Assembly: GCA_964487045.1 (NCBI GenBank)
Contig: CAZAOT010000001.1
Location: 215,863 to 279,862 of the forward strand
Source: an uncultured Candidatus Saccharibacteria bacterium
Lineage (GTDB): Bacteria; Patescibacteriota; UBA1384; DTJR01
DNA length: 64,000 nucleotides
Reading direction: 5' to 3'
In this document: in pieces, positions 3,019-53,466 of the stretch
Position numbering within the stretch: position 1 is the first letter of the stretch
Layout: each line of letters begins with the position of its first letter
The notes under the pieces: model-generated
Databases searched by the model: none
What the model was told of the DNA's origin: nothing
The model's input: only the letters and a program-made list of their open reading frames with translations
Made by a program: the position numbers and the translations under genes

Positions 3019-4872
3019 ATGGATATTTTAGAAGGCTTAAATCCGGCACAGAAAGAAGCCGTTACGGTGACAGAGGGCCCCGTTTTGATATTGGCTGGAG
3101 CTGGTTCAGGAAAAACTAGAGCGCTTACTCATAGGATCGCCTACTTAATAGGGGAGAAGAGTGTTAGCGTTCAAAATATTTTGGCCGTGACTTTCACCAA
3201 TAAAGCTGCCGGTGTGATGGGCGAAAGAGTATCTAAATTGCTTAAGACAGAAGCTAAATTGCCCTGGCTCGGTACTTTTCACTCTATTTGTGTCAAAATC
3301 CTACGCCGCGAGGTTCACCAGCTCGGCTATTCCAGTAAATTCTCAATATACGATCAGGACGATTCTCTGAGGCTTATCAAACAAACGATGAAATCGCAGG
3401 GTATAGACGAGAAGAAATTTAATCCTCGCGCAATTCAATCTTATATTTCAGGAGCAAAAGGGGAGTTGATCGATGCCAAGGCATATCAAAGTTTTGCTTT
3501 TGACGTATTTCAGGAAAATGTAGCTAAAGTTTATAAAATTTATGAAAGAAAACTTAAAGAGCAGGATGCGCTTGATTTTGATGATTTGATAGGGAAGGCA
3601 GTCGAGCTGTTTCAAAAATTTCCGGAAGTATTAAATAATTATCAAAGTCGTTTTAGATATATCTTGGTCGATGAGTACCAGGACACAAATCATTCTCAAT
3701 ATATTCTGCTTAAATTAATCGCCGAAAAACATCAAAACATCTTCGCGATAGGGGACGACTGGCAGTCGATCTATTCTTTCAGAGGAGCAAAATTTCAGAA
3801 TATTCTTGACTTTAAGAAAGACTATCCAAAGGCAAAAGTGATTTATTTGGAGGAGAATTACAGATCTAAAGCGCCGATTTTGGATGCGGCGCAAGCAATT
3901 ATCAAAAACAATGAACTCAGGTCTGACAAGAGCATCTTTACCAAGAGGGTAGGGGGGTCACCGGTGATGGTCATCGGCTCGCCGACTAAAAACGAAGAAG
4001 TAGAATTTATTCTTGACGAGATCCTATCGCTCAAGATAGGGGAGGGGCGAGAGCTAAATGACTTTGTAATTTTATATCGAATTAACGCCCAATCGCGAGC
4101 TTTTGAGGAATCGATGATGCGCCGCGGACTTCCCTACCGGATCATCGGGGGAGTCAGGTTCTATGAAAGACGCGAAATTAAAGATATTTTGGCGTATTTG
4201 CGTTTCGCCCGCAATCGCCTTGACACCATTTCCCTCTCCAGAATCATAAATGTACCCGCCCGAGGGATCGGCGAGAAAACCGAAAATCAAATTTTGGCTG
4301 ATCTAGATCAAGCTTTAAATTTTCCAAAATTCGCTAAGTTCATGGAGATTATCGAAAAAATTTCTGCTCAAATTGACAAAAACCTCAAGCCAGATGTTTT
4401 GATTGATCATGCACTTACCTTCTCTGGCTACAAGGACTTTCTAAATGACGGAACTATCGAATCTCAAGGCCGACTGGAAAACCTAGAGGAACTCAAAAAT
4501 GCCGCCGCCAGTTTCGAGACACTTGAGGAATTTTTAGAATCAGTCGCTTTAGTATCTGACACGGATAAATTTCAAGAAGATCGTGATTACCTAACTTTGA
4601 TGACCGTACACGCAGCCAAGGGTTTAGAATTTCCAGTTGTTTTTATTTCAGGTTTGGAAGAGGGTGTCTTCCCACATTCACAGAGCCAATTCGATCCTAA
4701 CGAACTTGAAGAAGAACGCAGACTATTATATGTTGGTATGACAAGGGCGATGGAGAGGTTGTATTTAACCTACGCTAGAAGCAAGTATCTCTATGGCCAA
4801 CTGCAATTAGCAACAGAGTCTAGATTTATAAAGGAGTTGCCTGATGACCAAGTCGAAATTATTGATGTGTAG
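3019..4872 (+). CDS. pcrA: ATP-dependent DNA helicase, UvrD/PcrA family
   Basis: Walker A GAGSGKT is followed by UvrD-type motifs. The start was taken at the ATG for MDILEGLNPAQKEAVT; the longer ORF begins at 2884. Confidence 0.85.
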   Translation: MDILEGLNPAQKEAVTVTEGPVLILAGAGSGKTRALTHRIAYLIGEKSVSVQNILAVTFTNKAAGVMGERVSKLLKTEAKLPWLGTFHSICVKILRREVHQLGYSSKFSIYDQDDSLRLIKQTMKSQGIDEKKFNPRAIQSYISGAKGELIDAKAYQSFAFDVFQENVAKVYKIYERKLKEQDALDFDDLIGKAVELFQKFPEVLNNYQSRFRYILVDEYQDTNHSQYILLKLIAEKHQNIFAIGDDWQSIYSFRGAKFQNILDFKKDYPKAKVIYLEENYRSKAPILDAAQAIIKNNELRSDKSIFTKRVGGSPVMVIGSPTKNEEVEFILDEILSLKIGEGRELNDFVILYRINAQSRAFEESMMRRGLPYRIIGGVRFYERREIKDILAYLRFARNRLDTISLSRIINVPARGIGEKTENQILADLDQALNFPKFAKFMEIIEKISAQIDKNLKPDVLIDHALTFSGYKDFLNDGTIESQGRLENLEELKNAAASFETLEEFLESVALVSDTDKFQEDRDYLTLMTVHAAKGLEFPVVFISGLEEGVFPHSQSQFDPNELEEERRLLYVGMTRAMERLYLTYARSKYLYGQLQLATESRFIKELPDDQVEIIDV

Positions 4873-5788: not shown

Positions 5789-6609
5789 GTGATAAATCCA
5801 TCTATCTAGAGAAATACAAGCAGTTTCATTTTGATAAATCTCTTGGTCAGCATTTTTTGACTAATGACGCGGTTGTCGAAAATATGGTTAAACACGCCAA
5901 GATCGAACGCGAAGATGCGATATTAGAAATTGGCCCCGGTCTTGGAATTCTTTCGCATGCCTTAGTCGCCTCGCCTGCTCGCGAAGTTATTCTTTGCGAA
6001 AAAGATGATTTGTTTGCCGCGATTTTAAAAAAGGAAATCACTAATAACAGGGTAAAAGTTATCACCGAAGACGCCCTCGTGCTAGTCCCCACCCTCCAAG
6101 TAAAACCGCCTTTTAAAGTAGTCTCAAATCTTCCATATAATATCTCATCACCGATTATTACTTCACTTTTGACGATGTCTCCTACTCTTCCGACAAAAAT
6201 TATCGTTATGCTTCAGAAGGAAGTCGCCGAGAGGCTGGTCACTCCGGCGGGAAATTCTGACCGAGGGATCATCACGGTTTTGATCGAATCTTTTGGTAAG
6301 GCTTCTATCATAGATCAGGTTCCTAAAGAAGATTTCTACCCCAGCCCGAAAGTGGATTCAGCGGTTTTGATGATTGAAGACATTAAGCCTTCTCAAATCG
6401 ATCCTAAGAAATTACTCAAGATTTTAAAAATGTCTTTTGCTGGTAAGCGCAAAAAGATCAAAAACTCATTGTTTTCAACTCTAAAGATTCCAGCTGATCA
6501 AGCGCTTGAGATTGCCAAGAATTCAGGTTTTTCGCTTGATGATCGTCCCGAGGATCTCACAATCGACGCGTGGACTAAATTGTTTAAAGCTCTCGAAGCA
6601 TTTAAATAA
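5785..6609 (+). CDS. rsmA: 16S rRNA (adenine1518/1519-N6)-dimethyltransferase
   Basis: N-terminal motif LGQHFLTN...ILEIGPGLG. ATGA overlap with the upstream gene. Confidence 0.85.
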   Translation: MSDKSIYLEKYKQFHFDKSLGQHFLTNDAVVENMVKHAKIEREDAILEIGPGLGILSHALVASPAREVILCEKDDLFAAILKKEITNNRVKVITEDALVLVPTLQVKPPFKVVSNLPYNISSPIITSLLTMSPTLPTKIIVMLQKEVAERLVTPAGNSDRGIITVLIESFGKASIIDQVPKEDFYPSPKVDSAVLMIEDIKPSQIDPKKLLKILKMSFAGKRKKIKNSLFSTLKIPADQALEIAKNSGFSLDDRPEDLTIDAWTKLFKALEAFK

Positions 6610-6659
6610 AAAAGTCGCTTATCTAGCGACACCATAATTAGAAATTAAAAATTACCGGC

Positions 6660-7187
6660 TTATGAAGTAAGGCGGTCTAGCAGCCATCCCATTCCCACTC
6701 CGATAAGGGCTGTTTTCCAAAAATCTCCAGATTTATCAGTTTCAACCGAGAGGTTGTAATTATCTCCACCGAAAGCGATATAGTTTCGTCCTAGCGCGGG
6801 GTATTGAAGGTAGTTATTATTGCTACCATAATTATTATAATTTCCGAGCATCGGGTTATAACCCTGACATTTCGATTGAGGAAGCAGGGAATTTATAAGC
6901 AAACACATAATTAGCCACTCTCCAGTGCCCATATTGGCCAGTTGCGAGTTATATGAATATTGATTGCCATAACCTGATATTAAGCCATTCGTTGCGTTCC
7001 AAATATTTCCATTCTCAGAGCACGTATTTAAATTATCCCCCGGCGACGCCCAGGTACCATCAGGCATCTGCTGCCAATATTCGCCTTGAATTTGTTTACA
7101 AGTTCCTACTGGATAAGAAGTAATGGAAGCGGCAAATGATACGCTTGGTAGCAAAACTATAAAAAGTCCGATCAAAAACTTCTTCAT
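6660..7187 (-). CDS. small secreted Asn/Tyr/Gly-rich hypothetical protein
   Basis: Signal peptide MKKFLIGLFIVLLPSVSFAAS. Backbone composition. Confidence 0.5.
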   Translation of the reverse strand: MKKFLIGLFIVLLPSVSFAASITSYPVGTCKQIQGEYWQQMPDGTWASPGDNLNTCSENGNIWNATNGLISGYGNQYSYNSQLANMGTGEWLIMCLLINSLLPQSKCQGYNPMLGNYNNYGSNNNYLQYPALGRNYIAFGGDNYNLSVETDKSGDFWKTALIGVGMGWLLDRLTS

Positions 7188-7326
7188 TAGCTAAATTTTA
7201 CATCTTTACGCAGGGGTCCGCAACTATTTACATATAAATTGAGAATATTATAATGGCACTTAACCGCAAGGATCAGCGGCATATAAGATTGGTCCAATGT
7301 CTGGCCGCAAGGCCAAAAGCAGGTGA

Positions 7327-8118
7327 ATGATGGAAAAGCTGTTTTACGGTCAGCCGGAGGTGGTTGCTGCAACTAGCCCCGTCGACGTTTTTGAAGTAGG
7401 TAATGGGTGGGGTCTCGCCAGGCAACAGCTGTATAACGACCCTTGTGCATTGGCGGTTGCCAGAGTCGAAAACTGCGCTTTTCTGGTCCGTTTCGAAAAT
7501 GGCCCAGAAATTGACTGGCAGGCAGGAGAGGGCTGGGGATGGTGTTTTCACGACGGCGGCTTCGTGCATACCGATATGCCAGAAGGCGGTAGATATATCT
7601 ACCCGGCCGTCGATCCTCTAGTGTTGTTCGCAGTCAGAGACGGCTGGGACTGGGAACAATTCCAGTATGCTCGCATGCTGCAGATCATCTGCGGCATCAG
7701 CGGTATGTACGAGCATGGGCAGAGCGTGTTCGAAGAACTCTACCCGAAGCTAAAGTTCCGCAAGAGTCTCGGTAACTACCAGGATCTCAGTAACGCGCTG
7801 GTTGCTGCCACTGCAGGACGTATGGCTCATCGGAGGGTCACAGTCCTAGGAGATTTCTGTAAGACGCAGCTCCAATGCGCAGGCAAGGGTGACAAGCGTC
7901 CCCTTGAGGCTCTGGTTACTACCCAGGGGCCAGTCGGTTATGTTGCTAATAGGCTCAAGGATGCCATCTATGCCATGATGGATGTCTGTAACAGCCTTGT
8001 CGGTGATTCAGTGGATCTTCAAGGCAGAAAGCTACTGCCTCGCAGTGAAGAACCGACGAGCGCCCTGGATTTCACGAAAGTCGACGAGGAATTACAGCGT
8101 ACGATCAACCTATTGTAG
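7327..8118 (+). CDS. GC-rich cassette A: hypothetical protein of 263 aa
   Basis: The open frame is visibly GC-rich against the AT-rich flanks. A TATAAT lies upstream and a hairpin (ggttgcc...ggcaacc) downstream at 8138-8160. Confidence 0.5.
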   Translation: MMEKLFYGQPEVVAATSPVDVFEVGNGWGLARQQLYNDPCALAVARVENCAFLVRFENGPEIDWQAGEGWGWCFHDGGFVHTDMPEGGRYIYPAVDPLVLFAVRDGWDWEQFQYARMLQIICGISGMYEHGQSVFEELYPKLKFRKSLGNYQDLSNALVAATAGRMAHRRVTVLGDFCKTQLQCAGKGDKRPLEALVTTQGPVGYVANRLKDAIYAMMDVCNSLVGDSVDLQGRKLLPRSEEPTSALDFTKVDEELQRTINLL

Positions 8119-8172
8119 TTCTGTTTGTAGAGTTGCCCACGGGTTGCCTGATTCTTAGGCAACCCTTCTTCT

Positions 8173-15998: not shown

Positions 15999-16072
15999 TG
16001 GAGGTCTGGCCGGGATTTGCACCCGGGTATGCGGTTTTGCAGACCGCTGCCTAACTACTCGGCCACCAGACC
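15999..16072 (-). tRNA. tRNA-Cys (GCA)
   Basis: Hand-folded. Acceptor GGTCTGG/CCAGACC, anticodon loop CTGCAAA, T stem CCGGG/CCCGG, discriminator U, encoded CCA. The T-loop is atypical (TGCAAAT). Confidence 0.75.
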
Positions 16073-16306
16073 ATGTCAAACTTCAAGCCTACTTAGTCAC
16101 CCTTGTCCTTCCGTAGGTCGCACTGCTCATAGAGGATATAATCCCTTGATCAGTAAGACCGAAGGAGGAAGACCTAATTTACAGGGTTAATATTATCAGC
16201 TTTTTATTAAATATAAAGAGTTTACGAAAGAAAACAGCCCCGGACGCGTCATCCTGGTAGAACCAGTCTGACGGCCGGGGCCGTTGGTGGCTAGTTGCCT
16301 AGCCAA

Positions 16307-16732
16307 CTACTCCCAGGAGAGCCAGGGGGCGGCAGAGGTGTCGGCAACCTTCATCAGGATTGCCAACGCGGTAGATGCGACGGGCCCCGGGAAGGCAACC
16401 GTTCCGCCTTCCTTGCGAATACCGACCTTGAGGCCAACAGCCTCAGCGGCGGCGCAGATGAAGCCGTGGCCGCGCGAGAAGATGTTGGCGGCGCCATCGA
16501 GCGCCAGTTCATGGCCATGGATGAGCACGTTGTCGCCATCCTGAAACATGTACACGAAGGTCGCGTTGGACTTGTCCTTGGCGACCTCCATCACGAACAT
16601 CTCGGCCTCGATCTCTCGGCTCTCCTCGTCAACTTCGCCTTGCTCATTCAGCGATACGACAGTCAGAGGCAGTGACCTTCTCATCTGAAACTCCAACCGC
16701 TTTAGGGGCGCGGCAACCCCATGGCTTGTCAA
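16307..16732 (-). CDS. GC-rich island B, gene 2: hypothetical protein of 125-141 aa
   Basis: GC-rich ORF. An internal Met at 16684 has the better SD (GGAG). Upstream at about 16800-16830 is a TTGACT-17-TATAGT promoter. Downstream (minus strand) is the gccccgg/ccggggc hairpin followed by a T-run. Confidence 0.5.
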   Translation of the reverse strand: MTSHGVAAPLKRLEFQMRRSLPLTVVSLNEQGEVDEESREIEAEMFVMEVAKDKSNATFVYMFQDGDNVLIHGHELALDGAANIFSRGHGFICAAAEAVGLKVGIRKEGGTVAFPGPVASTALAILMKVADTSAAPWLSWE

Positions 16733-16985
16733 ACTTCATGCAAGGGAGTACTAAGCTTCCTCCTCAAGCAAACATAAGACTATACCACAAAACAGCCTAA
16801 AAGTCAAGCCAAGTGAGTATTCTCACCTGGGTAACCCCTCACTCTAGACACGAAGTGAACGTGAACGAATTGTTCGAGTGAACTTTCGAGTTAGAGGGAG
16901 TGGTCAAGATTAGGGCTGTTTATAAAGAGGAAGGCCCCCTGTCGAATGACGGGGGGCCTGGTGGTTGCGAACAGAATCAGCGGGG

Positions 16986-17777
16986 CTATACCTTGGGAAA
17001 GATGGAGGCGCAGTCGCGCCCGGTGAACATGTTTTCGGGCGTGATCTGGACAGAGCGCCCGATGGCGTCGAGGTTGGGAGAGCATGCCAGAAGAACTTCG
17101 CGTAGATTCCACATGTTCATCCAGATATCCTTGAGCGCCTCAATGGCGCCGTCGGTTCCCTTCAGGAATAGTCCGTTCGGTGGGCCCTTGATGGGCCATT
17201 CCTTCAAGTGCTCCGATCCGGTCAGCCAACGCTCAAGCGCCAGAACCTCCTGAGGGAAGACGACTTTTTGCCCGGTGTTGTTCTGGCACTGGAGCCTGAC
17301 CTCATCAATGATGCTAGGGTCACTGGCCGAGGCCCGACCCTTGAAAGTAACGCGCACATTCTTGGCGGTGGTGTCGCGGACTCGTTGCCACTCGCAGTAC
17401 CAGTCGGCGAAGTCTTCCTTGATTGAGAGCTTGCAGACATAGGCTGATTGGAGCGTACTCCTTCGATCTCGGGAGTGATTGGACATGATCGGGTCGGGTG
17501 TGTGCTCGATGGACAAGCGTGGACCGAAGAGATGGCATCTCGTCAGGCCTCTGGCGAGGTTGACACAACGAGTGTTGCCAATGTAGTGAAGGAACCTAGT
17601 TCCTTGAGCTTCCGGACTCTGTAGTCGGATATCCATCTCGTCGCCGGAGGCGTTGGCCTGAATGTAGGCTGCGGCGCCTCCCTTGAAGCCTGGCACGATC
17701 TCGATGTCTCCTTGTAACGGTTTGAGCGCTTCGATGTCCGGAAGGCTGAACAGCTCGGGGGTCGGCGGCTGCACCAT
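16986..17777 (-). CDS. GC-rich island B, gene 1: hypothetical protein of 263 aa
   Basis: GC-rich ORF. AAGGAG lies 5 nt upstream of the ATG. No family was recognised. Confidence 0.5.
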   Translation of the reverse strand: MVQPPTPELFSLPDIEALKPLQGDIEIVPGFKGGAAAYIQANASGDEMDIRLQSPEAQGTRFLHYIGNTRCVNLARGLTRCHLFGPRLSIEHTPDPIMSNHSRDRRSTLQSAYVCKLSIKEDFADWYCEWQRVRDTTAKNVRVTFKGRASASDPSIIDEVRLQCQNNTGQKVVFPQEVLALERWLTGSEHLKEWPIKGPPNGLFLKGTDGAIEALKDIWMNMWNLREVLLACSPNLDAIGRSVQITPENMFTGRDCASIFPKV

Positions 17778-17880
17778 CTTGACTCCTTCTTGGCGGCTTA
17801 CCAGTAGGCCATGCCCGAACGGGTTGGGGAAGCGTCAACTATTGGTCCTGAGAAAACGGACATATGTTTATTCGCTGATC

Positions 17881-17926
17881 CTATCCGCCAAAGATCAAGT
17901 ATTCTCCTGATCACTGGCGGATAAGT
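17881..17926. promoter_or_regulatory. imperfect 17-bp inverted repeat (cTATCCGCCAaaGATCA...TGATCActGGCGGATAag), a candidate operator upstream of island B gene 1
   Basis: The palindrome was read directly. It lies about 100-150 bp upstream of the 17777 start and is adjacent to and overlaps a TTGACA. Confidence 0.45.
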
Positions 17927-18034
17927 ATGTCAAAGAACATTCAAAAGCACTCCTTGTAAAATCTTCACCAATACAATAACCTTATTTGTTAATATTTACA
18001 AAATTTCTCTCTTGATATATAATTGCTCCAGTTA

Positions 18035-18109
18035 GCGGGTGTAGTTCAGCGGTAGAACGCTTCCTTGCCAAGGAAGAGGCCGTGGGTTCAAGTCCCATCA
18101 CCCGCTCCA
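18035..18109 (+). tRNA. tRNA-Gly (GCC)
   Basis: Acceptor GCGGGTG/CACCCGC, anticodon loop TTGCCAA, T-loop TTCAAGT, encoded CCA. A terminator hairpin (aaccgcc-acca-ggcggt + T-run) follows. Confidence 0.9.
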
Positions 18110-18231
18110 AACAAAATAACCGCCACCAGGCGGTAATTTTGTTTGAAAAATGGCTGTGGGACTTGAAGGCCGGAGGTGCGACGGCACCGAGGCCCGCCCT
18201 GAAGAAATTTCAGCAGAAATTTACTGAAGGG

Positions 18232-18251
18232 AAGTCCCATCACCCGCTCCA
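18232..18251 (+). repeat. 20-bp perfect direct repeat of the tRNA-Gly 3' end (aagtcccatcacccgctcca)
   Basis: Identical to 18090-18109. Additional 19-bp direct repeats (gggacttgaaggccggagg) lie at 18158-18176 and 18300-18318. Confidence 0.8.
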
Positions 18252-18435
18252 ATTGAAACAGATGGCCCAGTAGGGCCATATTTTGGTGGAGTAAAAATTG
18301 GGACTTGAAGGCCGGAGGGCAACTGGTGCTTGATTTTGTAATTTCTCGATGTTCTCCGTTTGTTCGGGGTTGATTTTTACTCCTAACAGGTGTAGACCCT
18401 TGACAAGCTTGCTCAGTAGTGTACACTATTTCCCG

Positions 18436-22334: not shown

Positions 22335-22680
22335 ACTTGCGAAGCGGTTCTCCTACCCCCTGCACCCCCCTCTTTGCTCGCCCAAAAGACGATTTTGCTT
22401 TCTGAGACACTCCGAAAATCGCTTCGCTAGAATCGGCCTCTCGAAGCGCAAAATCGACTTTTGATAAAGGAGGGTTGGTCTTTTTGTTCGGGCAATATGC
22501 GATTGCCCGAACAGCAGGTAAAGCGAAAATTTTCTTGTTTCAATGAGTAGGCCCGCAAACTTGTCGGGTAGAGGCTCATTAGAAAAAGAAAATTTGAGCA
22601 GTCCTTGAAGCGTGTAAGGGTGAGGAAAGTTTTGAAAACCTAGGGAATTTGCCCGCAACAAATTCCTGGGTTTTCAAAAT
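22335..22680 (-). repeat. copy 5 (inverted orientation, diverged) of the recurrent structured element
   Basis: The reverse complement matches the shared blocks ccctaggttttcaa..tttcctcaccct and carries the terminal hairpin ttttgaaaacctaggg..cccgcaa..ccctgggttttcaaaa. Confidence 0.5.
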
Positions 22681-28299: not shown

Positions 28300-28632
28300 T
28301 GCGAGCAGTAGCTCGCGCTTATGTGAAAACCGGGGGGACACTCTTGATTGTGAAACATCCACTTTTTGAGTACCACCTCAAAAAGCCCTAGGTTTTCAAC
28401 GCTTTCCTCACCCTCGCAATGCCCTTGGTGAAGCTATCTTTGTTGAAACTTCCGGAATTTATTCAGTTTACGTTCAGACTTACGTCTTCATATTCAACTG
28501 ATATGCAGTTCCAACTTTCAACTTCAGAGAGCATCTATTAATTCATAGGCTCGAAGCTCGCTTTTTCGCCTATGAATTGGAGGGATTTATTAATGCCACA
28601 GAATTGACAAAACAGCACTTTTGTGCTATATT
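28300..28632 (+). repeat. copy 1 of the recurrent structured element, with a TTGACA-17-TATATT promoter at its 3' end
   Basis: Shares conserved blocks with the copies at 52555, 37131(-), 42381(-) and 22335(-). It carries two expanded hairpin inserts. Confidence 0.7.
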
Positions 28633-28736
28633 GTCAGGTTCGTAAATTGAAATTTACTTAGAGGTAGGTTCCTGGAGCTTTATCCAGAAATCCTGCTTCT
28701 AAGCAGGTATTCTCCAGCCGCTTAGTCGGCTGGGAG

Positions 28737-29261
28737 GTGATTGATTTGTCGAAGCAAGAACGGACAACCGGACTCGTTGTTGTAGCAGCGGTCGTAGGGA
28801 TCTGGATCCTTAGCCGCATCGTCGGCGATGGCTTCGGCGAGACGTTCTGCGAGATCTTGGCCGTGAGCGCCGGCGCCCTGGTCTGTACCATACTGGCATC
28901 TGCGCTGCTGACGAAGCCGGATGGGAAGATGCCGGAGGAGAGTGCTATCATCGGGCTCTTCATGATCTTCTTTGTCCTGCTGGCTATCCCGCACTTCAGT
29001 GTCTCGGCCAAGCTTGCGTCGAGCAAGTGGCAGATGAAGATCGCGGTGGCCCACGACTATGACAAAGCAGGGATCAAAGAGGCGCTCACCCAGCGTGACG
29101 AGACGCTCCGGCGCTCGAGTGCTTACATGATCGGTGACGGCTGGAAGTATGACCGTCACACCCACTACTTCAACCGGGGCTGGAACCTGTATCTCTGGGT
29201 TCCGTTCTCCGGATACCGGCGCAAGCCGGTCACGACCAACGGCCTGGGGACTAGTCCCTAG
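28737..29261 (+). CDS. GC-rich cassette F: hypothetical integral membrane protein (3-4 TM)
   Basis: GC-rich ORF with a structured ~100-nt leader and a GGGAGG SD. The start could be the GTG at 28737 or the TTG at 28746. Confidence 0.5.
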   Translation: MIDLSKQERTTGLVVVAAVVGIWILSRIVGDGFGETFCEILAVSAGALVCTILASALLTKPDGKMPEESAIIGLFMIFFVLLAIPHFSVSAKLASSKWQMKIAVAHDYDKAGIKEALTQRDETLRRSSAYMIGDGWKYDRHTHYFNRGWNLYLWVPFSGYRRKPVTTNGLGTSP

Positions 29262-29317
29262 GCCGTTTTTGATTGAAAAAAATCAAATTATAAGGTATAA
29301 TTTCGATGTTTGATGAT

Positions 29318-29394
29318 GGGCGACTAGCTCAGTTGGTTAGAGCGACTCGTTTACACCGAGTAGGTCAGGGGTTCGAATCCCTTGTCGCCCACCA
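29318..29394 (+). tRNA. tRNA-Val (TAC)
   Basis: Acceptor GGGCGAC/GTCGCCC, anticodon loop TTTACAC, T-loop TTCGAAT, CCA. Confidence 0.85.
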
Positions 29395-31937: not shown

Positions 31938-32034
31938 CTAGTATTTCATAAACGCACGGCTCTGGAGTAATTCAGAGCCGTGCGTTTATAAGAAACCACC
32001 TGCTCTTTGAGAGTTAGGTTAAGGAGGAACGGCC

Positions 32035-33717
32035 GTGGGCAAGCTGTGGCTGGCTCTTGTATTGCTTGTTGTTGTCTCGATGTCGTTTGCTGCTCAAGAC
32101 TTCGCAGTCGAGTGGCATGTCCACTCGAGCACCTTCTCGGACGGTACTCGCACCCCGCTACAACTCGTGCTCGATTCGCTTTGCCAAGTGGTGGTCTTCT
32201 CAGATCACCTCGACGGCATAGCAGCAAAGGGGGCGAAGCTCTACCTCGACACCATCAGAAGGTTGTCGGGTACAGCTGGGACGCTGGCTATTCCTGCGGT
32301 CGAAGTGACTTGTGGTAAACTTGAGAGCTCATATGATGTGATTGCTCTTGGCCTGAACGAAGAATCGCTTGACGAGCTGATTTCGCTTTATCAGAGAGGG
32401 GCTTTCAACTACTCCGAGCAAGGGCTACCTGCCCTTAAGGCGGTTGCAAACCGCTACAACTTGATCCTCATCGCTGCCCATCCGGACAGTAAGGACACCC
32501 TGCTTGGCAAGGGCATCCCTTTCCATCTCAACGAGAACGCCAAGTATGTCGACGGGTTTGAGATGTTCGATTCGAACCACATCGGTTTTGACGCGGACAA
32601 ATTTCCCGAAAACTGCCTGCCGTTCTACAGGCACTTTGACCGGCTAACGCTCACAGCTGGCAGCGACTTTCATTTCCTGATTCACGGCTCATTGCCAACC
32701 GAGTCTTGGCGTGAAGCGCCAATGACCCGGGTCATCCTCGACGACGACGCCTCGCTCACCGAAGAGTCGATCACTGACTCAATCCGGCGTGGCCGAACTT
32801 ACGTCTCGAGTCTGCGCAGCGCTCGGCTAGTCGAAGCGAGTGCGATGCCCGGCGGAGTGTGGAAGCTCGCCGAGCCGCTCTATATGGCTTGCCGAGGAGT
32901 AGAGGAAGGCGATTTTCTCTACGACAAGGTCAATGTGATTGCGGTCACCGGGAAGACGTGGCACAAGCGGAGCTTTCAACCTCGCTTTGATGGTGACAAG
33001 TTGGTGCTGAAGATCTCGGCTGATCAGTTTCCCCCTGGCATCAAGAGTCTGAACGTAGACTTCTGCGGGCGGATCCTCACCTCGACGATTCTCACCGCGC
33101 CGGCGCCAACTGCTCCGGTGCAGTCATCGCCTGTCGCTTCCGCACCCTCGCCGGTCCAGCCGACCCCTCAACCCGCACCTCAGCCTGCCGCCACATCCTC
33201 ACCAAACGCTAATGTCGATCCGAAGTACGGCATCAATCTTGCGGCGTATAAGTACCGCTTCCGCGGTACACAGGGGAATGTCTTTGGCAACACGAACGAG
33301 TATCTGGTCGTCTTTAATGACGACCTCAAGGGTAAAGTCTGGCATCAATTCGTGGCAGAATTTCCGCCGATTGTTCTCGACGTACAGCTCGAGATGAAAA
33401 GCGACGGCCACGCCCAATGTGTAGAGCTGTTCGACTTTGAACAGACCGCGAACGCCTGGCTTCCCAACCGTGCCCGGGATCCTCGCAAGACCGACCCATA
33501 CCTTGATGAACTGAGGTGTTGGAGTGAAGGTGACTGGGATCTGATCCCCAAAGGGAAGGCGCGTTTGAGAGTCAGCATTGATCCCAAGAGCCTCATGGCG
33601 TCGCACTGCGACACGTCGGGGCTTGCCTATACGATCAAGTCGATCCCTGCCTGGGCCTACGCGTTCAATCGGGGGTTTAACTACTACTATGACCAGGTTT
33701 TCCTAAAGCGTTTCTAG
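32035..33717 (+). CDS. GC-rich cassette G: secreted PHP-domain phosphoesterase with a Pro/Ala-rich linker and a C-terminal domain
   Basis: GTG start with AAGGAGG 7 nt upstream, then a signal peptide. PHP motifs HVHSSTFSDG, AAHP and SDFH are present. A strong terminator lies at 33745-33781. Confidence 0.6.
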   Translation: MGKLWLALVLLVVVSMSFAAQDFAVEWHVHSSTFSDGTRTPLQLVLDSLCQVVVFSDHLDGIAAKGAKLYLDTIRRLSGTAGTLAIPAVEVTCGKLESSYDVIALGLNEESLDELISLYQRGAFNYSEQGLPALKAVANRYNLILIAAHPDSKDTLLGKGIPFHLNENAKYVDGFEMFDSNHIGFDADKFPENCLPFYRHFDRLTLTAGSDFHFLIHGSLPTESWREAPMTRVILDDDASLTEESITDSIRRGRTYVSSLRSARLVEASAMPGGVWKLAEPLYMACRGVEEGDFLYDKVNVIAVTGKTWHKRSFQPRFDGDKLVLKISADQFPPGIKSLNVDFCGRILTSTILTAPAPTAPVQSSPVASAPSPVQPTPQPAPQPAATSSPNANVDPKYGINLAAYKYRFRGTQGNVFGNTNEYLVVFNDDLKGKVWHQFVAEFPPIVLDVQLEMKSDGHAQCVELFDFEQTANAWLPNRARDPRKTDPYLDELRCWSEGDWDLIPKGKARLRVSIDPKSLMASHCDTSGLAYTIKSIPAWAYAFNRGFNYYYDQVFLKRF

Positions 33718-33744
33718 CGCGTAGGGAGATCGAGGTTTGTTTTC

Positions 33745-33781
33745 ACGCCCAGCCGGGTTGTTTCCTGGCTGGGCGTTTTTC
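33745..33781 (+). terminator. intrinsic terminator (acgcccagccgg...ctggctgggcgt + TTTTT)
   Basis: Read directly from the sequence. Confidence 0.7.
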
Positions 33782-33972
33782 TTGAACAAATGTCTTTGTT
33801 CTGTTAAGATCGTGTAATAAATAAAGTAATATCCCGTCACTTTTCAACCTCTCGCAATATTCTCAATCTGAGAAATTTGCGGTCCCCTGTCAAACGGGTC
33901 AAGTAGGTTTCCAAAGTGAGGGACTTCCGGTCCAGCCCTTCGTGAAGAGCTGGACACGGAGCGGGAGTAAAC

Positions 33973-37130: not shown

Positions 37131-37400
37131 CAATTTTATTTATAAAAGTCAAAGATATTATATTCAAATAGTCGAAGAAGCGAGCTTGGAAGCGATAATA
37201 AATAAATGCTCTCCGAAGTTGAAAGCTGGAACTGATTATCTTGGCAAACTTGTCCAAGAATGAATTCCAGAAGGTTCAACAAGGAGAGCTTCATCAAGGG
37301 CGTTGCGAGGGTCAGGAATTCGTTAAAAACCTAGGGAACACACCGAAAGTGTGCCCTGGGTTGTTAACATTAACTGCGAGCCGAAGGCTCGCAAAGTAAT
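37131..37400 (-). repeat. copy 3 of the recurrent structured element, upstream of the native trmH-like gene
   Basis: Its reverse complement is about 85% identical to copy 2 (52555-52770) and shows compensatory stem changes. Confidence 0.7.
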
Positions 37401-39894: not shown

Positions 39895-39926
39895 AAAAGA
39901 TACTGCCCGCCGATAGGCGGGCAGGG

Positions 39927-40544
39927 TCAATAGAGCAAAGTACTCGTACTGGTACGAAAACCAATACTCCACTCAAGGTCGGAATAGATCTTTGCTTCGA
40001 TTGAGCCGAAGCGCTGACATATACCAACCTGGAAGTCAAAGTCGTCTAGGTTCGAAACGTCCAGGAAGCCCCGAGCGATAAAGTCGGTGCTTGATGTGAG
40101 TTTGGCGATGCGCCATTTCGGCAGAGAAAGGAAACCGGTCGGGTGCGAGTTGGGTAGCGCGATCGGATAGAGGAGCCGCAAATCGATATTTCTATCGAGG
40201 TACTGCAGCCCTGCGTAGAACTCCTCTTTCTGGATTGGGTCGTATCCCATTTCCTTGTCTCGATCGGATTCCCAGATTCCCGGTACGATATCGAGCATAA
40301 AGCGGTACGACGAGCGCCAGTCTTTAGGGATTGGCCAGGAAAACCTGACGTTCTTGGTCAGTGAGGTTGACGATTCGTAGTCGATTTCGAAGAGGAATAT
40401 CTGATCGTAGAAGTATCCTTTGACCAGACCGTCGCTCCACTCGGCCCCGACTTCGAAGGGTCGGTTGTCAATATCCTGCGCCCAAAGCGGCGTCAGGCAG
40501 AGCACGGCTACCGCAAGAGCGGCTAAACGTGTCACGCATGACAC
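39927..40544 (-). CDS. GC-rich cassette I: secreted hypothetical protein with a signal peptide and a C-terminal aromatic residue
   Basis: AAGGAGG SD. A terminator ctgcccgcc-gata-ggcgggcag + T-run lies on the minus strand. Confidence 0.5.
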   Translation of the reverse strand: MSCVTRLAALAVAVLCLTPLWAQDIDNRPFEVGAEWSDGLVKGYFYDQIFLFEIDYESSTSLTKNVRFSWPIPKDWRSSYRFMLDIVPGIWESDRDKEMGYDPIQKEEFYAGLQYLDRNIDLRLLYPIALPNSHPTGFLSLPKWRIAKLTSSTDFIARGFLDVSNLDDFDFQVGICQRFGSIEAKIYSDLEWSIGFRTSTSTLLY

Positions 40545-40655
40545 CTCCTTAGGTTGGCTTACTAGCTACACTATAGCACTATTTAGCCCGTTAGAAATTG
40601 CCGACGCCTTGTATGCGCCGATATTGTGTATTTATATCTTAGTCGGCATCGATTT

Positions 40656-41483: not shown

Positions 41484-41583
41484 TTGAGCAAAATATTACT
41501 AAAAATAAGGTTCAATGTAAACAAAACGGGCCACCCAAGCTATGCAAGGGTGGCCCGTAGAGGGTCCTGGTAGGTGGCTCTAC

Positions 41584-42246
41584 CTAGACCGGGTTGCCAT
41601 TGGCGTCAGCACCGGCGCCATCTGTGTTGACCGAGTAGTCGTTCTTCGTCTCGGTCGTGGTCGTGCGGGTGCCGGCGTTCGAGGCGTTGTCGGCCACGTT
41701 GGCCGTGCCACCCATGCTGCCTTCGGCGGCGGACGAGGTGGTGCCTCCCTCGGCCGAAACCGTCGGGGAAGCAGTGGCGCTCACGCCACTCACGAGCGGC
41801 CCGCTCCACAGCCCATTGGGCAGGGAGAGGGTCAGGTTGATCGTGGGCACAGTCGGCGGCTGACTGCGGAGAGCGTTCAGCTCTCGCCGCATCAGCACCA
41901 GCGCGATCAGGCCCGCGATAAGGCCAAGGGCCAGTCCGATGAGGACTGCCATGACCCAGGAGTTGTCCCGCCAAATCTGCTCCGCCGCCGCGACGGCCAT
42001 CGCCCAAGCCTCCGCGCGAGTCGCGTTGGCGTTGGGGCGGAGCGTACCGTCGGGGTACCCGTTCAGGTTCCCCTGACCGGTGCCCTTGTTCCATGTGGGC
42101 TGGGCCCAGGCGGGCGCGGTCTCACCGGTGTTGAGGTTCGTGAAGTTGATCGGTCCAGAGGAAGGGATCCACGGCCGATCAGTCTGAGCGAACGCGACGG
42201 ACGACAGGAGAACGACAGTGATCACGGCAATGATGGTGCGGGACAT
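41584..42246 (-). CDS. GC-rich cassette J: secreted protein with an S-layer-homology (SLH) domain, then a TM helix and a Ser/Thr/Gly-rich tail
   Basis: SLH signature GYPDGTLRPNANATRAE. The promoter TTGACA-17-TATACT (42381-42409, minus strand) is near-identical to the cassette F promoter. Terminator gggccaccc...gggtggccc at 41529-41557. Confidence 0.55.
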   Translation of the reverse strand: MSRTIIAVITVVLLSSVAFAQTDRPWIPSSGPINFTNLNTGETAPAWAQPTWNKGTGQGNLNGYPDGTLRPNANATRAEAWAMAVAAAEQIWRDNSWVMAVLIGLALGLIAGLIALVLMRRELNALRSQPPTVPTINLTLSLPNGLWSGPLVSGVSATASPTVSAEGGTTSSAAEGSMGGTANVADNASNAGTRTTTTETKNDYSVNTDGAGADANGNPV

Positions 42247-42380
42247 GAGTTGCCTCCCGGCAAGTGTAGTTGCCGCCTCTATACCGAGGTCGGCGTGTAT
42301 CTTTACCCCAGAGCCACCTGGGGATTAAGAACTAATTGTCAAATGCCACATTGATGAGCTTCTCACCAACGTAACGAAGC

Positions 42381-42650
42381 AGTATAGCACAAAATAGCTG
42401 TTTTGTCAATCCTGGAGCTAATTAATCGCCGAAGGCACCGCTTCCAAAAGATGATTTTTCGCTTCTTGCGCGAGTAGTGCCGCAAATCTGTCGGCTCGAG
42501 TGCTCCCGGGAAAGAAAAATCATACTTTTGAGCGTGTTGCGCTTTTTGAGTGGAGCAAAAAGCTAATCCATCAAACCTAGGAACTTGCCCGCAACAAGTT
42601 CTTGGGGTTTCGACATTAACTGCGAGCTTTTAGCTCGCAAAATTTCTTTC
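42381..42650 (-). repeat. copy 4 (partial) of the recurrent structured element, carrying the cassette J promoter
   Basis: Shares the terminal hairpins tgcgagc-N5-gctcgca and aaacctagg..cccgcaa..ccttggggttt, plus the promoter block. Confidence 0.55.
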
Positions 42651-52554: not shown

Positions 52555-52819
52555 TCGTATGTAATGTTAACAACCCAGGGGACACTTTCGGTGCGTCCCC
52601 TAGGTTTTTAACGATTTCCTCACCCTCCTAACGCCCTTTGTGTAGCTCTTTTTGTTGAACCTTCTGGAATTCATCCTCGAACAAGTTTGTCGAGGTAATC
52701 AGTTCCAGCTTTCAACATCAAAGAGCATCTATTTTTTAAAGTCTCGAAGCCCGCTTCTTCGACTATAAATCGACTTTTGATACGGGAGTATTGACATTTA
52801 CCGGGGAATGTGGTAATAT
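52555..52819 (+). repeat. copy 2 of the recurrent structured element, with a TTGACA-17-TAATAT promoter at its 3' end
   Basis: About 85% identical to the reverse complement of 37131-37400. It sits directly upstream of cassette K. Confidence 0.7.
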
Positions 52820-52829
52820 ACGCAAGCTC

Positions 52830-53210
52830 ATGTATTTGAGCACATCCGACGTATACGGAGGCAAGCCCATGGGATGGGAACACGGAACGTTCGGTCGTGG
52901 GGCGTACGACGCGTTTCTCGCTGACTTGAGAAACGATAAGTACAACGACTTCACCATCGTGAAGCTCGACAATCCCAACCAGCCTGAGTACAAGCGACTC
53001 TGCCGCGGACGCGACCTCGACTGCAAGAGGTCTCTCCCGCTGCGCATGGCTCGCTTCAATTACGCAGGCCGCCGCGACAACTGGTACGTCGTGGAGGAAG
53101 TTCTCGCGGTTGATGACAGGGATTGCGATGGCGCGTCCATCGTATCTCTGATTGTCTACCCCGAAGGCTGCCGCCCTGCAGTCAGCCCACCACTGATGCT
53201 GGAGGCCTGA
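52830..53210 (+). CDS. GC-rich cassette K: ~126-aa hypothetical protein, probably translated from a near-leaderless mRNA
   Basis: The ATG lies about 10 nt after the -10 box. A terminator (ggacc...ggtcc + TTTTT) lies at about 53365-53400. Confidence 0.45.
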   Translation: MYLSTSDVYGGKPMGWEHGTFGRGAYDAFLADLRNDKYNDFTIVKLDNPNQPEYKRLCRGRDLDCKRSLPLRMARFNYAGRRDNWYVVEEVLAVDDRDCDGASIVSLIVYPEGCRPAVSPPLMLEA

Positions 53211-53466
53211 CCACACGAGTCCTGAGCGGACTGTAAAATGCTCCGTCTCCGGCAGACGTTAAATGCTGGACTTCCCCGGAAACGGGGGTTCTAGGCATGG
53301 CTTGCCATGTCTACCACACCTGATCGTTTTGCTGTTTATTTGGGCGGCTAGTTCCGTCCACTATATGCGGGACCTGCGGCGATATTGCTGACGGGTCCTT
53401 TTTGTTATTACTTGATTGTAAAATACCCATTTTGAGATATAATCAAACCAGTAAAAAAGGAATTTT

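Follow-up and report, generated by a model that had tools for sequence, protein, structure and literature searches.

How does a genome of about 42% GC come to carry a short, GC-rich pair of orphan genes between two tRNA genes, and what is the palindrome that stands in front of them? The locus lies in a 64,000-nucleotide stretch (hereafter the window, numbered from its first letter) of contig CAZAOT010000001.1 (assembly GCA_964487045.1) from an uncultured Candidatus Saccharibacteria bacterium, whose gene content suggests a member of the Patescibacteria/CPR. An original prediction, made from the sequence alone, had described a GC-rich island at 16230–17930 between tRNA-Cys and tRNA-Gly, and all the features that it named were recovered there or close by. 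Our analysis suggests that this islet was horizontally acquired and that it is a modular, strain-variable element in a fixed chromosomal slot, with the larger gene (gene 1) and its RNA leader as the anchor and the smaller gene (gene 2) as a later, independent insertion. We give this composite reading about an even chance of being correct.

The islet is bordered by tRNA-Cys(GCA) (15999–16072, minus strand) on one side and by tRNA-Gly(GCC) (18035–18109, plus strand) on the other, both called by ARAGORN and Rfam. In the window both tRNAs have the islet on their 5′ side, and tRNA-Gly, which has a promoter at 17995–18023 (TTTACA-17-TATAAT, plus strand), is divergent from gene 1. The order along the chromosome is SBP5, SecG and tRNA-Gly, then the islet, then tRNA-Cys, a 107-amino-acid gene and a 23S-IVP gene. 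Between 16001 and 18000, GC content measured in 500-nucleotide windows is 0.51–0.58, compared with a mean of 0.424 for the whole 64,000 nucleotides. The GC fraction at third codon positions (GC3) is 0.72 in gene 1 and 0.77 in gene 2, against 0.33–0.45 in nine neighbouring genes, and because of this excess the composition of the two genes is counted as foreign.

Four lineages were found, initially by following up a relative of gene 2 with 90% identity and then by profile searches. Read from tRNA-Gly, which borders the slot in all four, the window holds the leader, gene 1, gene 2 and tRNA-Cys. Lineage L007 holds the leader, gene 1, gene 2 and a gene for a NUDIX protein (NUDIX208), and L001 (GCA_041890195.1) holds the leader, gene 1, gene 2, a gene for a 268-amino-acid zinc-ribbon NUDIX-like protein, NUDIX208 and tRNA-Cys. 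In L008, L009 and the 116-kb contig HYHW-GF5 the leader and a gene 1 homologue are followed by NUDIX203, with no gene 2, and thereafter by 118-amino-acid, 191-amino-acid and PNPOx-like genes. NUDIX203 and NUDIX208 are 32% identical (E 6e-19), and in L008 the ATG of NUDIX203 lies 1 nucleotide past the stop codon of gene 1, the two being translationally coupled.

Wherever flanks were available, they had SBP5 and SecG in common on one side, and on the other side a gene of 100–107 amino acids, 23S-IVP, a gene of 479/480 amino acids, a sortase and an LPG-synthase. Since the same chromosome flanks the islet across lineages, the slot is fixed. Its cargo differs in all four lineages by presence and absence, and only gene 1 and its leader are constant, the remainder being variable. 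The pair of genes, whose lack of synteny elsewhere would have told against the original prediction, recurs in the same slot in L001 and L007. Look-ups through the flanking SecG and 107-amino-acid proteins returned the same strain only. Another GC-rich islet of L001, at 5978–7531, carries a PurC-PurE fusion gene (63% GC, GC3 0.85) with its own terminator between genes of 447 and 113 amino acids; the corresponding position of the window has no such fusion, which makes it a further case of variable GC-rich cargo.

Gene 1 (16986–17777, minus strand) encodes a soluble orphan protein of 263 amino acids, the size and position originally proposed and the ones given by the list of open reading frames (ORFs). 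Its homologues align over their full length with the frame preserved, at 28–40% identity: the window protein is 37% identical to that of L001 and 28% identical to the L008 homologue (E 2e-28). The ratio of non-synonymous to synonymous substitution (dN/dS) is 0.21–0.25, with synonymous sites saturated (proportion of synonymous differences, pS, 0.78 between the window and L001). Divergence is not spread evenly along the gene. L001 and L007 are 99.6% identical upstream of gene 1 and 94% identical in gene 2, and of the 161 differences between their copies of gene 1, 110 fall within nucleotides 181–471. The maximum chi-square of this distribution was 81, a value that none of 300 permutations reached. 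Gene 1 is thus a mosaic produced by recombination, in which the central third (about residues 61–160) has been swapped among divergent alleles, while the N-terminus (1–60), an LERWLTG segment and the C-terminus VQIT.EN.FT.RDCASIFP are kept. An exchanged core between fixed flanks is a pattern typical of recognition and conflict proteins.

Gene 2 behaves differently. The protein keeps 90% identity in L001 and L007 and has no counterpart in L008; its dN/dS is 0.12–0.16 and its pS 0.40 (window versus L001). Its complete ORF spans 16307–16732 on the minus strand and would give 141 amino acids from a TTG codon. Of the range of 125–141 amino acids first suggested, we favour the shorter form (16307–16684, a soluble orphan), because a GGAG ribosome-binding site stands 7 nucleotides upstream of the ATG at 16684, L001 has no start codon in place of the TTG at 16732, and databases call the same form. 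The gene is served by a near-consensus promoter, TTGACT-17-TATAGT (16779–16807, minus strand; 10/12 matches), with an upstream TG that makes it an extended −10 promoter; this promoter had already been recognised between the genes in the original prediction. A 5′ untranslated region (UTR) of about 88 nucleotides (16685–16772, minus strand), its start deduced from the promoter, is conserved in L001 and L007 and has no unusual predicted fold (z +0.6). Downstream, an intrinsic terminator at 16225–16285 (minus strand) consists of a long GC hairpin, GGCCCCGGCCGUCA...UGACGCGUCCGGGGC, followed by UGUUUUCUUUCG, and has an equivalent in both L001 and L007; it is the stem-loop with T-run that the original prediction had described. 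Together with a second, smaller hairpin it forms a folded stretch of 86 nucleotides (−50.3 kcal/mol, z −6.8).

A terminator-like GC hairpin, read from the sequence, also follows gene 1 at 16933–16958 (minus strand; GGCCCCCCGUCAUUCGACAGGGGGCC, then UUCCUCUUUAU), again with equivalents in L001 and L007. Given terminators after both genes and a promoter for gene 2, the two are separate transcription units, and the earlier view that they are under separate control holds. A private insert of 94 nucleotides (16809–16902), flanked by a CTTGAC duplication, separates the terminator of gene 1 from the promoter of gene 2. It is absent from L001 and L007, occurs once in the window and has its own hairpin at 16809–16830.

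This architecture suggests how the islet may have been assembled. Gene 2 and the two extra genes of L001 each have a promoter, a leader of about 90–110 nucleotides and a terminator, and the insertion junctions that can be resolved fall at the −35 element, including that of the 94-nucleotide insert; the 268-amino-acid cassette of L001 sits between two copies of CTTGA(C/T)TTTT. We propose that the islet was put together from autonomous units, each with its own terminator, and that the gene 2 cassette, with its strong extended −10 promoter, arrived later and came to separate gene 1 from a NUDIX hydrolase gene. The NUDIX hydrolase would then be the older partner of gene 1, now missing from the window, and gene 2 would be neither the cognate immunity protein nor the antitoxin of gene 1.

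Both proteins proved to be orphans, as had been supposed. Neither matched Pfam, NCBIfam, PADLOC, PHROGs or PDB sequences, and neither gave a match in a tblastn search of phage genomes, which leaves a phage origin rejected. Profile searches of the PDB returned nothing below E 0.5 for either, the gene 1 family matched no defence model in PADLOC-DB v2, and the best match of gene 2 there reached only E 0.04. A simple hydropathy scan found no signal peptide or transmembrane segment in either protein, and no secretion-associated domain was found in gene 1. A HMMER scan of 1.84 billion representatives with gene 1 recovered only its own family, one distant member (P0006) and a fish immunoglobulin-repeat protein (P0007). 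We treat the latter as spurious: its E of 3.5e-6 is summed over four repeats, and hhalign gave a probability of 55% across a domain boundary. In a word-indexed search of 5.8 billion clusters gene 1 matched only itself and gene 2 only the 90%-identical relative, and a scan of GTDB genomes returned no relative of gene 2. AlphaFold2 models were unusable, with predicted local distance difference test (pLDDT) scores of 39.8 for gene 1 (alignment of 3 sequences) and 41.1 for gene 2 (2 sequences).

The constant part of the slot includes the leader of gene 1, about 148 nucleotides long (17779–17926, minus strand), which we describe as a hairpin, a three-way junction and a ribosome-binding site. The hairpin, P1 (17880–17925, minus strand; 5′ arm 17907–17925, 3′ arm 17880–17899), is the palindrome of the original prediction. 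The palindrome arms at 17882–17897 and 17908–17923 are 16 nucleotides long, 88% complementary and 10 nucleotides apart. Since local inverted repeats of this size number 26 in the window, the palindrome alone is unremarkable; its mark of distinction is its conservation in other genomes. The leader as a whole is 86% identical to those of L001 and L007 and 81.5% identical to that of L008, and is far more conserved (81–86%) than the gene 1 protein behind it (37% and 28%). This is well above neutral expectation, judged also against the pS of gene 2 (0.40). Across the non-coding DNA upstream of gene 1, the window and L001 are 78–86% identical, and indels in the leader are confined to hairpin loops.

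RNAalifold predicts P1 as a 19-bp hairpin, followed by several short helices. Its 19 pairs are 98% paired across lineages, and all six variable pairs stay paired: two are double changes (G-C to A-U, and one loop-adjacent pair altered on both sides) and four are single changes to or from G·U. The G·U changes preserve pairing in the RNA of the sense strand only and leave the DNA half-sites unequal. For the whole leader structure 94.9% of cells are paired, compared with 25–46% for slid partners. The leaders available amount to no more than three distinct sequences, with four double and five single pair-preserving changes; the observed score was reached in 15 of 500 shuffles. The covariation is therefore suggestive of RNA structure, not proof of it.

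A leader peptide was rejected, as there is no conserved frame and L001 has a frameshifting 1-nucleotide indel and a stop codon. The leader matched no Rfam 15 family at E ≤ 1, only the two tRNAs reaching threshold in the window, and a search with a covariance model showed no further copy, either in the window or in the related loci. The pattern GGGCATGGCCTACTNGTAANCC had no match in genomes or metagenomes (GTDB representatives, JGI metagenomes and IMG/VR); a looser pattern, GTTGACGCNNCCCCAACCC, gave 84 matches, none with the flanking motifs, and all were put down to chance. On this evidence the leader is a candidate for an uncatalogued cis-regulatory RNA.

What such an RNA might do is indicated by a second pairing of the P1 3′ arm. 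The Shine–Dalgarno (SD) sequence AAGGAG (17783–17788, minus strand) and the adjoining GCCGCCAAG (17789–17797) are complementary to this arm (CUUGAUCUUUGGCGG), which in the window is also complementary to the UCAAG before the AUG; the whole complementary segment spans 17778–17797. When the 5′ arm is omitted, the leaders of all three lineages are computed to fold into one and the same three-way junction, closed by the 3′ arm paired with CCRCCAA (and the SD). The closing helix contains a compensatory change, from CCGCC/GGCGG to CCACC/GGUGG in L008 (C-G to U-A); the 5′ arm of L008 keeps CCGCC and so forms a G·U with the GGUGG of the 3′ arm. An inner helix changes from GGA/UCC to GGU/ACC in L001 (A-U to U-A). 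Both pairings of the 3′ arm are thus computable and conserved, and one strand with two conserved partners has the logic of a sequestor/anti-sequestor switch. We propose that the leader acts as RNA, transcribed from a point upstream of P1. With P1 formed, the ribosome-binding site of gene 1 would be free; with the 5′ arm unavailable or absent, the 3′ arm would pair with CCGCCAAG and the SD before the AUG, closing the junction and masking the site. The palindrome would then serve a translational switch as its anti-sequestor/sequestor element and would not be a repressor operator; the upstream start of the transcript, the switching itself and its trigger are the parts of the proposal that we infer.

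Several observations weigh against this proposal and the composite reading to which it belongs. A promoter scan found no good sigma-70 promoter upstream of P1. TTGACA or TTAACA stands directly 5′ of P1 in all lineages (in the window TTGACA at 17933–17928, minus strand, abutting the palindrome), and should it be a −35 element, the transcript would begin within the palindrome; the 5′ arm would exist as DNA only, which favours an operator, and an RNA lacking that arm would have its masking helix formed constitutively. The alternative fold is less stable than P1 by about 16 kcal/mol, so switching at equilibrium requires a further factor. The covariation is thin: it comes from three distinct sequences, its score is reached by 15 of 500 shuffles, and shuffling is a lenient control where the sequences are related. 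An operator, too, would appear as a conserved palindrome. Beyond the leader, the NUDIX partner is absent from the window, and there is no structural support for a function (AlphaFold pLDDT 40 and 41).

The palindrome and the adjacent TTGACA of the original prediction are both present, then, and it is their interpretation as a repressor operator that probably gives way to an RNA hairpin. In the operator interpretation a dimeric repressor, encoded elsewhere, would bind TATCCGCCA-N-TGGCGGATA overlapping a TTGACA promoter and so control transcription of gene 1. In its favour, every lineage has conserved a genuine inverted repeat with TTGACA/TTAACA immediately 5′ of it, the scan showed no canonical promoter farther upstream, and L008 has a weak third half-site-like sequence at 236–245. 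However, four of the six changes in the repeat make its half-sites unequal yet leave the RNA paired by way of G·U, which holds for the sense strand alone; conservation continues for about 100 nucleotides past the palindrome as far as the ribosome-binding site, with indels only in loops; and the 3′ arm co-varies with the segment adjoining the SD. Moreover, the hexamer 17 nucleotides after TTGACA (TCAGGA, GATCAG or AAATTA) is a poor −10 element, the islet encodes no DNA-binding protein, and the window has no further copies of the site, the extra one in L008 being within chance. An operator regulon was likewise rejected, as half-sites occur at chance level. We regard an operator as possible but rather unlikely.

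A resemblance of the gene pair to toxin/immunity or defence-module layouts had also been noted, with no function assigned, and this part of the original prediction was not supported. If the larger, diversifying protein were a toxin and the small one its immunity protein or antitoxin, one could point to the adjacency and common orientation of the genes in three of the four lineages, to the hypervariable and mosaic gene 1, reminiscent of polymorphic toxins, to the strong and apparently constitutive promoter of gene 2, and to the orphan status of both on foreign DNA. Yet L008 and HYHW-GF5 have gene 1 without gene 2, so that gene 2 is dispensable; gene 2 stays at 90% identity while gene 1 drops to 37%, without co-variation; a terminator separates the genes, which are not one operon; gene 1 lacks a signal peptide, secretion-associated domain or transmembrane segment; and no toxin, antitoxin, immunity or defence family was matched in Pfam, NCBIfam, PADLOC, PHROGs or PDB. 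We consider this pairing very unlikely. A structured non-coding RNA island in place of protein genes has next to no probability. GC-rich islands in AT-richer genomes can mark RNA genes, and no protein family was matched; but the full-length, frame-preserving protein alignments, dN/dS well below 1 for both ORFs and the concentration of the GC excess at third codon positions refute it for both ORFs, and Rfam gave no match.

Another possibility is that gene 1 is the variable sensor or specificity part of a conflict (for example anti-phage) or nucleotide-signalling module with a NUDIX effector, that the window holds a decayed version whose effector is lost, and that gene 2 is cargo with no relation to the module. 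Three of the four lineages have NUDIX linked to gene 1, with translational coupling in the most distant of them; a mosaic hypervariable core is typical of proteins under frequency-dependent selection; and NUDIX208 has a weak match, confined to the Nudix box, to the PADLOC candidate PDC-S07 (6e-5). Against this, no defence family matches gene 1, the NUDIX fold is common in ordinary metabolism, other cargo looks metabolic (the PNPOx-like gene in HYHW-GF5 and the PurC-PurE fusion in the other L001 islet), and gene 1 is under purifying selection in the window, where NUDIX is missing. Such a module is unlikely in our estimate. Our best guess at the function of gene 1, drawn only from linkage and mosaicism, is a recognition or specificity protein that acts with the NUDIX hydrolase on a nucleotide-derived substrate or signal.

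The islet is not the only GC-rich insert of this genome. At least six more lie in the window, at 7251–8150, 28651–29350, 31951–33800, 39901–40650, 41501–42400 and 52801–53400, with GC of 0.52–0.62 and GC3 of 0.54–0.83. On a partial annotation each appears to be one long ORF without a Pfam family, in keeping with the earlier remark that the present islet is the only multi-gene GC-rich segment, and several of the ORFs have a hydrophobic, signal-peptide-like N-terminus or a strongly hydrophobic segment. These single-gene islets make orphan inserts a genome-wide feature, not one peculiar to this locus. Paralogy among the proteins of the GC-rich islands was sought and none found beyond the two NUDIX genes. 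The promoter motif of gene 2, TTGACNNNNNNGCNNTTTTGTGNTATA, occurs three times in the window (at 16781, 28604 and 42383) against 0.06 expected, each time next to a GC-rich orphan ORF, and there are two copies in L001. The copies at 28604–28630 (plus strand) and 42383–42409 (minus strand) are extended −10 promoters with a conserved spacer (TTGACAAAACAGC..TTTTGTGCTATA) that precede two further orphan genes of high GC. A family of dispersed repeats, up to 212 nucleotides long, 84–88% identical and present in both orientations (37168–37379, 52555–52766, 28386–28543 and 22617–22650), adjoins GC-rich islets in most of its copies.

In L001 the NUDIX-type cassettes have near-identical ends of about 65 nucleotides (3′ end plus terminator, GCACTAGCCGGACCTAACCAAGGCCCCAGAGTGAG.GATCACGACTGGGGC) at 2735–2800 and 3550–3610, which suggests that cassettes are gained by recombination through them. 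A promoter, CTTGACTTTTTTGTAAATTT.., is kept at a cassette junction in L008 (1927–1955), L007 (1744–1775) and L001 (2824–2855); it precedes NUDIX208 in L001 and L007, but the 118-amino-acid gene after NUDIX203 in the L008 lineage.

Repeats are also present at the borders. The last 21 nucleotides of tRNA-Gly recur as an exact copy 142 nucleotides downstream (18090–18110 and 18232–18252), and so, at the same distance, does a 20-nucleotide block, GGGACTTGAAGGCCGGAGG.. (18157–18176 and 18299–18318). Such repeats have the look of att-type scars left by integration at the 3′ end of a tRNA. In L001 a related block adjoins tRNA-Cys at 3726–3761; that tRNA-Cys (3792–3865) is inverted with respect to the window, and an exact 22-nucleotide copy of its own 3′ end lies 105 nucleotides before it, at 3666–3687.

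If the reading given here is right, the islet shows a reduced genome gaining genes one promoter-to-terminator unit at a time in a fixed slot, with units that share a promoter motif with other GC-rich orphan islets of the same genome. Gene 1 belongs to a very rare orphan family, seen in four lineages within a library that represents about 15 billion proteins, and its swapped core and fixed flanks are the usual signature of recognition or conflict proteins. The leader offers a candidate uncatalogued cis-regulatory RNA with a three-strand mechanism and, should it sense a metabolite, a way to learn what gene 1 and its NUDIX partner do. An improbable but consequential extension is that the leader represents a new class of ligand- or protein-responsive RNA switch, controlling a recombining, hypervariable orphan that works with a NUDIX hydrolase. 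Were that true, the slot would house an undescribed sensor-plus-nucleotide-hydrolase module, for conflict or nucleotide signalling, at a tRNA-Gly-linked hot spot in ultra-small bacteria.

Genomic islands are common in Patescibacteria (PMC12455944), and the islet can be compared with several known systems. With integrase-type islands that target tRNA genes it shares foreign composition, tRNA adjacency, strain-variable cargo and enrichment in orphans. It differs in lying 5′ of both tRNAs and in having no integrase: it contains just two ORFs, neither of which matches any Pfam or NCBIfam family, integrases and recombinases included. Nor do tRNA 3′-end direct repeats bracket it, since those nearby enclose only 142 bp on the far (3′) side of tRNA-Gly. 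Its cargo, moreover, appears to have been gained as single promoter-to-terminator units and not as one block. An integron cassette array was rejected because general Pfam and NCBIfam scans found no integrase family in the two genes and most cassettes have their own promoters; attC-like sites were not recognised, in the course of an analysis that made no search aimed at attC or integrase.

A closer likeness is found in phage morons, which are promoter–gene–terminator units of deviant base composition inserted between genes. The units of the islet resemble them in having their own terminator, deviant GC and mostly a recognisable promoter of their own, and their visible insertion junctions lie at the −35 element, marked by the CTTGAC duplication. 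Unlike morons, they sit in a chromosomal housekeeping setting and not in a prophage, and have no PHROG or phage tblastn match. Type II toxin–antitoxin and polymorphic toxin–immunity loci are similar in that two genes stand on foreign DNA and one is diversifying; the genes of the islet, however, are not co-transcribed, do not co-vary, are not always paired and have no domain homology to such systems.

The leader of gene 1, for its part, resembles the translational riboswitches and protein-binding leaders that sequester the SD. It has a conserved, predicted multi-helix junction in what would be the 5′ UTR, a closing helix that takes in the ribosome-binding site and a competing upstream strand. 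It differs in having no Rfam family and only three sequences, and in that its competitor lies 5′ of the junction, within a far more stable hairpin. As foreign DNA at a tRNA hot spot, then, the islet is a known kind of object; what is new in it is the orphan family together with a candidate leader RNA that stands outside Rfam.

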